Shown here: positions 15,001-21,000 of the stretch, in pieces
Position numbering within the stretch: position 1 is the stretch's first letter
How the letters are laid out: the number at the start of each line of letters is the position of its first letter
Assembly (NCBI RefSeq): GCF_058153355.1
Contig: NZ_CM177019.1
Length of the DNA: 64,000 bases
Direction: 5' to 3' (one strand)
Program-made: the position numbers

Positions 15001-18000
15001 ACCGCAGACAACTGGATAATGCCGTCAGTGGGATGCACAACAGTGTACTTTACTGGCTGCGGGCTGAGTACCGTAAAACAGACCTCGCGCAGGATGCGTC
15101 CCCCGTTAACCTGATGCGTGGTGCCATGCAGCAACTTGCCCGGCGCTGGCAGAAAAATTTTGACGAAATGGCCCTGCGGCTGGCGAGGCGGTTTGCCGGT
15201 GATGTCCTGAAAAACAGCGATGCGTCACTGTACACTGCGCTCCGTGATGCCGGGTTTACGGTTCCTTTCCGTATGACAACGGAGATGAATACCGCACTTC
15301 AGGCCAGCATCACGGAGAATGTGAACCTCATTCGCTCCATCCCGCAGCAACATCTCACCCAGGTGGAAACACTGGTCATGCAGTCTGTTGGCCGGGGACG
15401 TGACCTGAAAACGCTGACCGATGAACTGGAAAAACGTTACGGCATCACACGACGGCGCGCGGCGCTGATTGCCCGCGACCAGAACAATAAGGCAACGTCG
15501 GTAATGCAGGCCGCCAGACAGCGTTCGGTGGGTATCACTGAAGGTGTCTGGAGGCATTCCCGCGCGGGTAAAACATGGCGTCCGTCGCATGTGAAGGCGA
15601 ACGGTAAACGGTTTGACCTGCGAAAGGGGATGTTTCTGGATGGTAAGTGGGTACTGCCGGGCGAAGAAATCAACTGCCGGTGTGGCTGGGAGGCCGTTAT
15701 TCCCGGACTGGAGAAAAAATGATTATTACCGAAATGCTGGCGTTTGACCGGGCATCGGTAAGGCAGTTCGATAAAGTCGGTCGCCTCCAGATTGAGCGCA
15801 GTAATCTCAGCAAGGCGAACGTCTGCGGTTATTTCGGGTATGAAATACCGGGGGCGGAAGCGCTGGGACTCGACCCCAAAAAACTTTATCAGCTTTACCG
15901 TGACCCCGATGAACTGCGCAAGGCAGTTTCAACCTTCAACAATATTCCCGTCCTGTGCCGACACAAACCCGATTATCCGGGCGCGCCCGCGCGCGAGTAC
16001 CGGGTGGGGACGACTCATGCCAACAGCGAGTTTGACGGTACCTATCTGGTTAACGGCATGTCCATCTGGGACAACTCCGCCATCGCGGGGATAGAAACGG
16101 ATGAACAACGGGAAATCTCATCGTCATATGCCTATGTGGCAGATATGACGCCGGGAACCACCCCCGACGGTGAGCCGTATGACGGCGTTATGCGGAATAT
16201 CGTGGGAAATCATGTGGCCCTGGTCGGCGATGGCCGGGTAGGGTCGGACTGTCTTGTTATGGACTCTCTCCCTCAGGAGCTAAAACGCATGAAACTGAGT
16301 AAAAAAGAAGTGGCGGTGCTTACCGCGCTGGGAACCTATCTTGCGCCGCGTCTGGCGCAGGATGCGGCTCCCGGGGATTTGTTACGCCTGATGGCGCAGT
16401 ATAAGCGTCCGGCAGCTATCGCCAGCGCGGTAAAAACTGCTTACAGCGAACGGCTGGCACAGGATATGGATATTGAACCGGCGGAGCTGGCGCAACTGAT
16501 GGAATCAGCAGAAGCCGTACCGGAGCTGGTCGGGGATGATGATACCGGGTTAACTGACGAGTCGAAGGCATTTGATACCGACAGCCCGATGGAAAGTGTA
16601 CTGGCGTTGCTGTCCGGCAAAGTTCCTGATGATGTGCTGGAAAAAATTAAATCCGCACTGTCTCCGACAACCGACGAAGCCCCCGAAACAAAAGAGGCTG
16701 ATGTGAAACCCGACGATGTGAAACCCGACGATGTGAAAGTCGATAAACCTGCGATGGATGCAGCAATCAGGCGGGCAACTGACCAGGCAACGAAACGGGC
16801 TGCTGAAAATTTCCGCGCCGTCCGTGTGGCTGAAGCTGAAGTGCGACCGCTGATTGGCGATGTGGTGGCGATGGACTGCGCCGAAGATGTTTACCGTACC
16901 GCGCTGGAACAGACGGGGATCGATATCCAGGGTATTCACCCCGGTGCGTACCGCAGCATGGTGAAGTTTGCCGTTGAGCAGAAGCAGACGGCCAAATCCT
17001 CTCCCCGTGTGGCGATGGATCAGGCCAGCGCATCGACGTTTGCGGCAGATTTCCCCGGTGCAAAACTGAAACGAGGTTACTGATATGAATACTTTTCAGA
17101 CACACATGAACCAGTACCCGGCACCGGGTATTCCGGGGGCGTTTGCCAGTGCTAACCCTCATGCCTCGTATGTGGCGGGAGATGGCGGGCTGATTACCGG
17201 CCCTGACGGGCTGGTAATTGCCCGGTTTGCCTGGGTAACCAAAGGTGTTGCCGCTAATAAGGGGGCCGGCGCACCGGCGGGTTTTGTTCCTCGTGACGGG
17301 CAGGCTTCCATTGTGGAATGGCTGGCCGGGGACTCGAACACCATTTATCCGGGGCGTGAATGCACCCTGATGGTGTCGGGGGATTTCTGGGCGCTGACCA
17401 CCACTACTGCGACGATCGGGCAGAAAGTATTTGCCTCACTGGCCACCGGGGAGATAGCCACGGGGGCGGCTGGCACCTCGATGGCGGGGTTTGTCGAAAC
17501 CTGGTTTTCCGTTGCCAGCGCTGCGGCGGCAAAAGAAGTCATTAAGATCAGTACCTGGAGCAAATAATGAATAAATTTAAACAGCATTATGCGACGGCAA
17601 GTCGCGACTACGGGATTATTCTTCCCGGAGCACAGGCTTATTTGCCGAAGGAGTACGCCGCCGATTACGGACTGGCGATGGACGCGCAGCCTGCGCTGGT
17701 CACAGCGGCTAACAGCGGTATCCCTGCGTATTTCACCAATTACGTTGAGCCAGAACTGATCCGCGTGCTGGTGACGCCGATGAAAGCCGCTCAGATTCTG
17801 GGCGAAACCAAAAAAGGTGACTGGACGACACTGTCGGCACAATTCCCGATTGCAGAATCTGACGGGGAGGTGAGTTCCTACGGGGATTACAGCAACAACG
17901 GGGTGGTAAGCGCAAACGTCAACTGGGTACCGCGCCAGAGCTATCACTTCCAGACCTTCACCGTATGGGGCGAACGTGAGCTGGAGATGTACGGCGCAGC

Positions 18001-21000
18001 CCGTATTGGCTGGGCGGCAGAGCTGAACGTGGCGTCAGCACTGACGCTGAATAAGTTCCAGAATAAGTCCTATTTCTACGGTATTGCCGGACTGACGAAC
18101 TACGGTTTGCTGAATGATCCGTCGTTATCTGCACCAATCACCCCGGATACCGTTGACGGTAAACTGAAGTGGGACGACAAGGACGGACAGGGCGTGTATG
18201 ACGATATCGTGAAACTCTTTAAGCAACTGGTGAAACAGACTAACGGTCATATTGAGCGTACCGACAAAATGAAACTGTGCATGTCGCCGCTGGCAGAGGT
18301 GAACCTCACCAAAACAAACCAGTACAGGGTTAACGTGTCCGATCTGCTGGCGAAAAATTTCCCGGCGATGACCATTGAAACGGCGGTGGAATACACCTCT
18401 GACGCTGGCGAGCTGGTACAGCTTATCGCGGAGCGTCTGGGTGAACAGGATACAGGCTATTGCGCTTTCACTGAAAAAATGCGCGCCCATGCGGTAGTGG
18501 CAGATACGTCTTCCTGGAAACAGAAAAAATCCGCTGGTACCTGGGGGGCGATTATTCGCCAGCCGCTGGCGTATGCACAAATGCTGGGGGTGTGAGTTAT
18601 GGCTGAAATGGTAACAGTGGGCTGTAAACTGCCGAACGGTCTGGTGCTGGAAGTGGGTCAGAAACGGGTTCAGGTGGCAGGCTGGCGGAATAACGCGGTT
18701 AAAATTGTGGGGGGCTATGGTCTGACGCAGGTCGATAAGGTGTTTTTTGACGCCTGGCTGGCGGAGCACGGACAGCAACCTTATGTGAAAAATGGCGTTA
18801 TTTTTGCGCAGGATAAGGCGAACAGTGCAGTCTCGCAGGCTACGGAGCAGAAAGCCGTTAAATCCGGCCTTGAACCGCTGCCGCAGAAAAATCCGGCTCC
18901 GGGCGTTAACCGCAATGATGAAGTGATGGGTAAACCTCAGGAGTAAACGCTATGGGTACGGTGATGTTTGACTGTCGGATGTTTGTCAGTCTGTACCCGG
19001 AGTTTTCCACGGTGACACCGGAGCTACTGACGGCGGTGTTTAACCAGGCGACCGCGTTGTACCTGGATAACACGGACGACAGTCCGGTTACCGACCTGAA
19101 GGAGCGGGAACAGCTTCTGTTCCTGCTGGTTGCGCATCTGTGCGCATTGCGGGGGCTGGGAAACGGGAGAAACGGGCAGGCTGGTCTGGTGGGGCGTATC
19201 ACCAGTGCGTCGGAAGGTTCTGTATCGGTATCGGTGGATAATAGCGGCAGTAATGATGCGTCGTGGTGGTATCTCCAGACCCCCTGGGGTGCTGACTACT
19301 GGCAGGCGACAGCGCCATACCGCTCAATGCAGTATCATTCCGGGGGGTCACCTTCGCGATATCCGGGGCATTATTACCGGGGATACGGGAGGGGCGTCGA
19401 TGGTAAATAAAGTCACAGGTGGCAAACAGTTCCGGCAGAAGCTGAAACAGGTTGCCGCGAACCTTTCATTGGGTAAAAAACTCAAAGTGGGTTTTCTTGA
19501 GGGAGCAACTTACCCTGACGGTACGTCAGTGGCTTATATTGCCGCAGTTCAGGAGTTTGGTGGAAGAGCGGTCATACCCGCCCGTGAGCAGACGCTCCAC
19601 TTTCGCTATAACGAAAAAACGGGAGAAACCGGGCACCGCTTTGTCAAAGCCGGTAAAGGGAATTTTGTTCAGGATGTGGTTATTCCTGAGCACACGGTCA
19701 CCATTCCCCCCCGTCCGTTCTTCCGTAAGATGATCGAACATAAAAGTCCCGAATGGGGCGAAAAAATGGCGACCTTATTACGGGCGAATGATTTTGATAC
19801 TGCGACCGCTCTGGTGTGTATGGGAGAACATATCAAAGGGCAGTTGCAGATGTCTGTTCGCGACTGGGAAAGTCCGCCCAACGCTGCATCCACTGCCCGG
19901 CAAAAGGGTTTTAACAACCCGCTTATTGAAACCGGACATATGATGGACAGCGTTGATTATTCTGTAGACGGGGGCAAAAAATGAACTTTCACGGTATTGT
20001 TTCCGGCGCAGTACGTCGGGTAAATCCCTTTACAGATGCGCTGGTTTATCGTTCCCGCGGGAGTACACAGCAGGCAGATTATTCCCGCGTACCTGAGTAT
20101 GAAGATCCGGTTTCCGTCAGGGTGCAAAAGCAGGCTGTTACCCAGGCTGATTTACGTCATCTTGATAATCTTAACCAGCAGGGAGTTTTCGCCACATTGT
20201 ATACCGATGGTAACTGGTGCGGGCTTAACCGTGCCCGGCAACAGGGAGGCGATAAATTTGTTATTGGCGATGAAACGTGGCTGGTGATTGAGGTACCGGA
20301 AATCTGGCCTGACTGGACGAGGGTTATTGTATGCCTTCAGGTGTGACCCTCTCCGTTACGGAAAGCGCTCTTTATCAGGCCCTCGGTGATTATCTCCGGG
20401 GGCTTTTTTCTGATGCCGGGATTGAACGAACGCAGCAGAACCAGGTCCCGATGCCTCAGGGGAATTTCATCACCATGACGGGCATTGATGTTACCGGATT
20501 ATCCACTGCGGTAGTGGCATATTCTGCGCCAGCGCAGGCTGGTGAGGGCTCTCAGCATATCACCCGTACCACAAAATGGCGTTGCCAGCTTGATTTCTAC
20601 GGCCCTCACGCGGCAGATAACGCGCAGGTGCTGGCAACGCTTTTCCGGTCTGAATTTTCCGTACGGCTTTTCCGGCAGGGCGGTGGGCTGATTTCCCCGC
20701 TGTATTGCTCAGAGCCCTTTAACACCACATTCCCCAACGGTCAGCAACAGTATGAACCGCGCTGGACGCTTGATATTCAGATGCAGATTAACCCTGTGGT
20801 CACAACTTCCCTGATGTTTTTTGACAACGTGATCACCCGGACAACGGAGGCTGATAATGCCAATTCCACTCAGTAAAGATGTACAGATAAATCCCGGTGT
20901 GCTGGCTGTGGCGGGTAATGCCGTCGATCTTAACGGCCTGCTGTTGACCAGTAATCCGTTACTTCCGGTCGGCACTGTGGTTCCGTTTTCCTCTCCGGAT

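Follow-up and report, generated by a model that had tools for sequence, protein, structure and literature searches.

In the contractile-tailed phages E217, Pa193 and PB1, the Pbunavirus module for capsid and neck (PDB 8FVH, 9B41) comprises gp24 (cement), gp25 (capsid), gp27 (adaptor), gp28 (collar), gp29 (gateway), gp31 (sheath) and gp32 (tube). The adaptor of E217 and Pa193 is a dodecamer, the C-terminal arm of which is inserted between portal subunits (PMC10329688, PMC11456595). In E217 and in Vibrio phage XM1, a terminator hexamer caps the tube, and its C-terminal strand holds the last sheath ring (PMC10329688, PMC10457771); E217 gp32 is the tail tube protein (PMC10329688). The XM1 genes of this kind are gp53 (decoration), gp1 (adaptor), gp4 (head completion) and gp5 (terminator). 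Here we analyse a block of genes at positions 17085-20876 of a 64,000-nucleotide stretch of contig NZ_CM177019.1 (NCBI RefSeq assembly GCF_058153355.1), hereafter the window. With a probability of roughly 0.85, this block is an ordinary capsid-cement and head-to-tail neck module of an E217/PB1/XM1-type contractile-tailed prophage in a Shigella/E. coli chromosome. Five of the six open reading frames (ORFs) that an earlier reading of the sequence (the original prediction) had singled out can be named, and the sixth (18599-18946) belongs to a widespread uncharacterised family.

Capsid and neck genes of the block

An ORF call over 17085-20876 recovered all six ORFs of the original prediction, all on the + strand and coupled as it had described. 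They are not strictly consecutive, since the 342-aa capsid gene, which was absent from its list, lies between the first and the second. The genes of the block, with their predicted products, are as follows.

17085-17567, + strand: predicted capsid cement/decoration protein, 160 aa (PF23982, PF22758, phrog_2122)
17567-18595, + strand: predicted major capsid protein, 342 aa (phrog_264 major head protein, E 1.1e-90)
18599-18946, + strand: protein of an uncharacterised family, 115 aa (phrog_2085 "unknown function", E 2.5e-45)
18952-19410, + strand: predicted head-to-tail adaptor, 152 aa (PF13262, PDB 8fvh_N, phrog_302)
19400-19984, + strand: predicted tail completion/Neck1-type protein, 194 aa (phrog_222, phrog_26, PxRPF motif)
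19981-20346, + strand: probable collar/head-completion protein, 121 aa (PF22755, phrog_1912, gene position)
20331-20876, + strand: predicted neck/tail terminator ("gateway"), 181 aa (PF23961, NF047498)

The junctions along the block are, in order, a 1-nt overlap, gaps of 3 and 5 nt, and overlaps of 11, 4, 16 and 20 nt. A purine-rich, Shine-Dalgarno-like sequence (GAGG/GGAG/GGGG-type) was observed 5' of each ATG, and the ATG at 19400 falls within a longer TTG-initiated frame beginning at 19130. Because each of the six products matched a phage protein family in a PHROG search (E = 1e-44 to 1e-71), we consider the ORFs to be real genes rather than chance reading frames. The RefSeq annotation of a 99.8% identical E. 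coli prophage calls the same six genes at identical positions; the predicted proteins are identical to the E. coli copies for five of the six, and the adaptor differs by 2 residues. Two antisense ORFs (17345-17947 and 18125-18778) showed no family match and carry no RefSeq annotation. The original prediction also held that the ORFs of this head-tail joining region could not be assigned beyond position and that, most simply, their products have structural or assembly roles. The second view is borne out by Pfam, PHROG, NCBIfam and PDB-sequence searches, which gave cement, adaptor, tail completion protein (TCP), collar and terminator, and the first now applies to 18599-18946 only. The common gene order, protease/scaffold - cement - capsid - small ORF - adaptor - (TCP) - collar - terminator - (TCP) - sheath - tube, was found in PB1, Aeromonas phage 4_D05, Acinetobacter phage NJ02, Xanthomonas phage PhiXhv-1 and three metagenomic/genomic contigs.

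The 160-aa protein matched PF23982 (XM1_gp53_minor_capsid) over its full length (E 6.2e-33, 114.2 bits, cut-off 27) and PF22758 (Phage_cement, E217 gp24/Pam3 gp6; E 1.6e-19, 70.9 bits, cut-off 27), and these hidden Markov model (HMM) matches cover residues 4-156 of 160. It was also assigned to phrog_2122, minor head protein (E 1.6e-71), and is labelled "structural cement protein Gp24" by RefSeq on the E. coli copy. Its gene lies directly 5' of the major capsid gene with a 1-nt overlap, an arrangement shared with PB1, the Aeromonas and Xanthomonas phages and contigs L008 and L009. By family, this product is assigned as a capsid cement protein related to XM1 gp53 and E217 gp24, and would be expected to form trimers. 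The 342-aa protein is likewise assigned by its PHROG match as the major capsid protein; its match to PF09950 was weak (E 0.0038) and under the cut-off. Directly 5' of the cement gene, at 15647-17083, is the gene of a DUF2213 protein, to which PHROG gives the label "head maturation protease". The DUF2213 family PF09979 is named after Pa193 gp24 in precomputed Pfam annotations of a related contig, and the model of Pa193 gp24 is that of a putative scaffolding helix, which contacts the inner side of the capsid at its 5-fold vertices; this conflicts with the protease label.

Among the neck genes, the adaptor was the only one for which a single-sequence phmmer search of the PDB was productive. The 152-aa protein matched the solved adaptor chain 8fvh_N ("E217 head-to-tail connector gp27") and 9b41 (Pa193 gp28) over residues 4-136 (E 2e-10), PF13262 (DUF4054, later renamed E217_gp27; E 1.1e-17, 64.5 bits, cut-off 23.9) and phrog_302 (E 3.9e-44). 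It is assigned on these matches as the portal-binding head-to-tail adaptor and would be expected to form a dodecamer under the portal. The 181-aa protein matched PF23961, Phage_tail_terminator_9 (E 2.5e-30, 105.6 bits, cut-off 27), the NCBIfam model NF047498, phage neck terminator protein (E 8.5e-20, 70.9 bits, cut-off 28), and, weakly, the XM1 tail terminator 7kjk. Its gene is directly 5' of the DUF3383 sheath gene, which it overlaps by 20 nt. We assign it as the predicted neck/tail terminator, in which case a hexamer capping tube and sheath would be expected.

The 121-aa protein matched PF22755 (E217_gp28) at E 8.5e-6 and 26.3 bits against a cut-off of 27, and 22 of 26 members of its family matched the same model at E <= 1e-3. 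Several relatives carry precomputed PF22755 matches, one relative bears the UniRef name "phage collar protein", and the protein itself belongs to phrog_1912, head protein (E 1.2e-52). Its gene is directly 5' of the terminator gene, a slot that the collar gene also occupies in PB1 and Aeromonas phage 4_D05. Three results speak against the assignment: the Pfam score falls 0.7 bits under the gathering score, the family profile did not retrieve E217 gp28 from the PDB sequences, and hhalign comparison with PB1 gp27 gave only E 0.014 (here and below, hhalign set family alignments against single-sequence targets). Because the profile missed E217 gp28, membership in the E217 gp28 family is taken as probable rather than proven, and the protein is probably a collar/head-completion protein, with a hexamer expected between adaptor and terminator. 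Both this protein and its profile matched TIM barrels designed de novo; as these matches add up four repeats, each below threshold, and contain no significant stretch, they were rejected as artefacts.

The 194-aa and 115-aa proteins

The 194-aa protein matched phrog_222, "tail completion or Neck1 protein" (E 1.3e-51), and also phrog_26 (E 8.1e-5), to which Mu G and P2 gpS belong (E 5e-41 and 4.5e-58, respectively). It shares 31% identity with PB1 gp29 (E 1e-21). A MAFFT alignment of 8 sequences, which is a motif comparison and not a statistical test, aligned its IPPRPFF motif with the motif of HK97 gp10, Mu G, P2 S and PB1 gp29, with P103 invariant. The AlphaFold model of the protein had a predicted local distance difference test (pLDDT) score of 84; when searched with Foldseek against BFVD, it retrieved predicted "virion morphogenesis protein" structures (E 8e-7 to 1e-3), with a template modelling (TM) score of about 0.55 at E 8e-7. 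The layout is that of a P2 gpS/Mu G-like core followed by a helical C-terminal extension of about 80 aa, which HK97 gp10, Mu G and P2 S lack and which has a conserved motif of its own, KGFxxPL-x-x-T. On this evidence, the 194-aa protein is probably a member of the tail completion superfamily (lambda gpZ/HK97 gp10/P2 gpS/Mu G), as judged from motif and profile similarity. Several results count against this placement. No Pfam family was found for the protein, for 57 relatives or for three short homologues, and hhalign comparison of the family with lambda gpZ showed no similarity. As regards its place in the particle, the location of a TCP has been established in one siphophage only, and the T5 candidate is at the tail tip (PMC11784142). 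A search of the family profile against PDB sequences gave nothing meaningful.

By analogy with 80alpha gp51, the 194-aa protein would most likely be a low-copy component of the neck/tube lumen, with the DNA end on one side of it and the tape-measure protein on the other; in 80alpha, the TCP occurs as a monomer within the lumen of the neck, where it caps the end of the DNA and binds to the tape-measure N-termini (PMC11661146). Pa193 gp27 and gp31 were detected in virions with LC-MS (liquid chromatography coupled to mass spectrometry) and were not placed in the maps (PMC11456595). From gene colinearity, we infer that Pa193 gp31 is the equivalent of PB1 gp29. A lumenal, low-copy location would explain why Pa193 gp31 is seen by mass spectrometry, yet absent from the symmetrised maps. 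Alternatively, the 194-aa protein could lie elsewhere, for instance outside the neck or in the baseplate, or could be a tail assembly factor only, as proposed for T5 p143. Its gene position is variable, being between adaptor and collar here and between terminator and sheath in PB1, the C-terminal extension has no counterpart in HK97 gp10, Mu G or P2 S, and the T5 study notes that TCPs may not form a homogeneous family (PMC11784142). We regard this alternative as unlikely, because the core motif and the HMM cross-match are held in common with P2 S and Mu G, and because the absence of the presumed counterpart Pa193 gp31 from symmetry-averaged maps fits a low-copy, symmetry-breaking internal protein (PMC11456595). 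A lumenal TCP is the reading we retain. In the studies of T5 and 80alpha, the position of the tail completion protein is regarded as a question that has long awaited an answer.

The records OP917824 (Amjad_SA), PP179326-9 (Orisa/Orimi) and A0A7H0XFR9 of UniProt (phiK7A1) give homologues of the 194-aa protein the name "RNA polymerase" or "putative RNA polymerase". Because of the gene position and the relatives of the family, this label in the Pseudomonas phage records is almost certainly a propagated misannotation.

The 115-aa protein consists of a compact alpha/beta domain (residues 1-83) and a low-confidence C-terminal tail with a conserved G-x-E motif. Its family, phrog_2085, comprises at least 2,585 clusters at 50% identity (E <= 0.001), and the best-scoring 150 members listed are all 104-198 aa long. 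Over 151 representatives, residues C9, K10, L11, P12, G14, G28, G39, T43, V45, W53, F69, A81, G90 and E92 are 90-100% conserved; they include a near-invariant C-K-L-P-x-G motif (Cys9-Lys10-Leu11-Pro12-x-Gly14), the likewise near-invariant Thr43 and Trp53, and the C-terminal motif Gly90-x-Glu92. Neither the protein nor any family member searched belongs to a Pfam family, and the protein has no NCBIfam match. A 59-sequence profile found no solved relative among PDB sequences; the failure to find any fold relative weighs against the interpretation of the block as an ordinary module. No Vibrio phage record matched the protein, and nothing usable was found in published virion proteomics of Obolenskvirus phages carrying the family. 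A "Brutus_gp83" (PMC10888812), considered as a relevant conserved protein, was rejected as an unrelated early gene.

The 115-aa gene has a constant neighbour. The adaptor gene starts <=50 nt downstream of it in 80 of 80 IMG/VR loci, a count whose force is reduced by redundancy, as the loci collapse to 16 clusters at 90% identity and 6 at 70%. Six of six more distant contexts show the same, with the adaptor as the gene that immediately follows, at a distance of 2-170 nt. Other genes, up to about 4 kb of them, separate the 115-aa gene from the capsid gene in Aeromonas phage 4_D05, Xanthomonas phage PhiXhv-1 and two contigs, and the adaptor still adjoins the 115-aa gene there. This constant linkage suggests that the function of the 115-aa protein is tied to the adaptor or to the portal vertex. 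The protein might then act at the portal vertex during head completion, as an adaptor-loading factor or as a low-copy component. That the family constitutes an undescribed class of head-completion factor, either an adaptor chaperone/loader or a hidden low-copy component of the portal vertex, is a tentative proposal which we judge rather improbable as it stands. A catalytic role, or one in forming a covalent linkage, would also be compatible with the conserved Cys, Lys, Thr and Glu.

Another explanation is that the 115-aa protein is not a virion component at all, and is instead a transient packaging or assembly accessory that, like lambda gpFI, promotes terminase-prohead or adaptor-portal engagement and then leaves. 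Its gene occupies the same slot as lambda FI, between the capsid gene and the head-completion genes, and this slot is filled by unrelated small families in PB1 (gp25, phrog_3714) and Mu (gp35, phrog_2498), to neither of which hhalign detected a similarity of the 115-aa family; this suggests an accessory role. The architecture, a compact domain with a flexible tail bearing a short conserved motif, and the lack of a homologue among solved phage structures point the same way. In contrast, hhalign comparison of the family with lambda gpFI detected no similarity, and it is the adaptor gene, and neither the capsid nor the terminase genes, with which the 115-aa gene is linked. Furthermore, the occupant of the slot in Pbunavirus, Pa193 gp27, which is not homologous to the 115-aa protein, was found in mature virions by LC-MS (PMC11456595). 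A transient accessory is a serious possibility, to which we nevertheless give somewhat less than even odds. The phrog_2085 family offers a genetic handle, in its adjacency to the adaptor, and a short list of invariant residues.

Prophage context and the defence question

The block is part of a longer series of late genes. The genes on its 5' side encode the small terminase, so named by RefSeq in the E. coli copy, the portal (PF06381), a head morphogenesis protein resembling Mu F, and the DUF2213 protein; a 539-aa ORF without a Pfam match is in the large-terminase position. The sheath and tube genes follow on the 3' side, and further 3' are baseplate and tail fibre genes and then, at the end of the prophage, the type III secretion system (T3SS) effector gene ipaH. 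Other features of the window are the following.

20857-22341, + strand: tail sheath (PF11863 DUF3383, E 2.4e-140; phrog_205 tail sheath)
22342-22788, + strand: tail tube (PF22764 E217_Gp32, E 1.8e-17)
24029-26496: IS66-family element, 2,468 bp (HTH_Tnp_1 ORF, TnpB_IS66 ORF, DDE_Tnp_IS66 transposase)
36724-38487, - strand: ipaH-type T3SS effector E3 ubiquitin ligase (LRR_TTSS and NEL domains), at the right prophage end
8691-8846: two tRNA genes (Asn-GTT, Thr-TGT), 5' of the lysis genes

Just past ipaH, the right flank is core chromosome, with an alpha-2-macroglobulin family gene, yfaQ, rcsC, rcsD and atoS. The ipaH-type effector is lysogenic-conversion cargo typical of Shigella and enteroinvasive E. 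coli. Window positions 9284-37671 are collinear with the E. coli prophage, and among 5,426 complete E. coli genomes, 7 carry a prophage that matches the block at 99.8% identity. The closest proteins in a large protein database were from Shigella flexneri, E. coli and Salmonella, and megablast of the block against cultured phage genomes gave no match. The element is known only as a prophage, from the 7 E. coli genomes and from Shigella and Salmonella proteins. A 99.6% identical E. coli prophage carries four different tRNA genes (Ile, Arg, Thr, Val) at the place equivalent to that of the two found here, and left of about window position 8900 the early regions of these two prophages are not collinear.

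Alignment to the uninterrupted E. coli copy mapped the IS66-family element to the tape-measure/lytic-transglycosylase gene, which it splits and which is a single 2,022-nt ORF in E. coli. About 9 bp at the junction are common to both flanks, and a search for terminal inverted repeats of the element found none. Because the element interrupts the tape-measure gene, this copy of the prophage should be unable to build tails, and we consider the prophage in the window to be defective, as judged from this interruption. This also qualifies our interpretation of the block, since in this copy expression of the module may not lead to particles.

The original prediction had found no recognisable defence architecture in the window beyond a toxin-antitoxin-like pair and the orphan Dam-type methyltransferase, and had proposed that profile hits to defence-associated domains in these ORFs would speak against its view. 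No such hit emerged: none of the six ORFs and the capsid protein matched a PADLOC-DB v2 family (0 families at E <= 0.1). The PADLOC searches covered these seven proteins of 17085-20876 and ten early-region ORFs out of those in the window. The early-region ORFs yielded generic domain matches and no system: Csa3/CasR was matched by a helix-turn-helix domain, a DRT primase-like model by a Toprim domain and PDC-S05 by an ORF6N antirepressor, and the orphan Dam methyltransferase gave a match as well. Pfam names these early-region ORFs as replication, NinB, Dam, antirepressor and RusA genes. The view that the window harbours no defence system held up in the block and in these ten early-region ORFs.

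It could still be argued that one or more of the ORFs is a moron, that is, a defence, anti-defence or lysogenic-conversion gene inserted into the late operon, given that related phages carry non-structural inserts here: Xanthomonas phage PhiXhv-1 has methyltransferases and DksA, a Neisseria contig has KilA-N and PBECR3, and Acinetobacter phage NJ02 has a transcriptional regulator. We consider this extremely unlikely for the block. In addition to the absence of PADLOC matches, all six families are syntenic across distant phages, the composition of the block is uniform with that of the flanking late genes, and, beyond the short spacings given above, the block has no intergenic gaps, promoters or strand switches. 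In the related phages, the cargo hot spots are the intervals from the capsid gene to the 115-aa gene and from the adaptor to the collar (L007 2904-4967; L009 3833-4600 and 6143-6775; L006 4393-5582). A 687-aa PKD-domain protein and KilA-N, PBECR3, cytosine methyltransferase and DksA-like genes are examples of such cargo, none of which is present in the block of the window. The result is mostly a routine annotation of a prophage late operon, which settles the absence of a hidden defence system in the block and gives names (capsid protein, collar and tail completion protein) to genes that RefSeq calls "hypothetical" in Shigella, E. coli and Salmonella prophages.

Proposed assembly pathway and comparison with known systems

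The solved virions of E217, Pa193 and XM1 (PMC10329688, PMC11456595, PMC10457771) suggest how the products of the module may be assembled. Cement trimers would clamp adjoining capsomers, and twelve adaptor subunits would dock on the portal once the DNA has been packaged. Six collar subunits would then provide the step down in symmetry from 12 to 6. On the tail side, six terminator subunits would cap the tube, with a C-terminal strand holding the top sheath ring, and the virion would form by the joining of the head-side ring with the tail-side ring.

Compared with Pbunavirus, the prophage has the same families for cement, adaptor, collar (borderline), sheath and tube, and the same overall gene order. 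The terminator (PF23961/NF047498) is in the same gene position as the E217 gp29 gateway, and a TCP-like homologue, PB1 gp29 (31% identity), is present in Pbunavirus too. The two differ in the place of the TCP-like gene (adaptor-collar here, terminator-sheath in Pbunavirus), in the small ORF 5' of the adaptor (phrog_2085 here, phrog_3714 in Pbunavirus) and in the size of the capsid protein (342 aa here, about 382 aa in Pbunavirus). Whereas Pbunavirus phages are virulent, the element described here is a temperate prophage with a lambdoid early region. Its similarity to XM1 is seen in the full-length family match of gp53 to the cement protein (E 6e-33, both 160 aa) and in the weak match of gp5 to the terminator. 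The neck logic of XM1, 12-12-6-6 (PMC10457771), would be the same here; unlike in XM1, no collar-spike gene was identified beside the block. Like the tail completion proteins lambda gpZ, HK97 gp10, SPP1 gp16.1, P2 gpS, Mu G and 80alpha gp51, the 194-aa protein carries a connector label in PHROG, and it shares with them the motif (I/V/M)P(A/P/S)(R/H)P(F/Y/L) and an N-terminal helix with a beta element. It differs from them in having no Pfam membership, no detectable similarity to gpZ, and the extra C-terminal helical extension of about 80 residues. For the 115-aa ORF, the positional analogue is lambda gpFI, a DNA packaging chaperone, the gene for which lies between the capsid gene E and FII.

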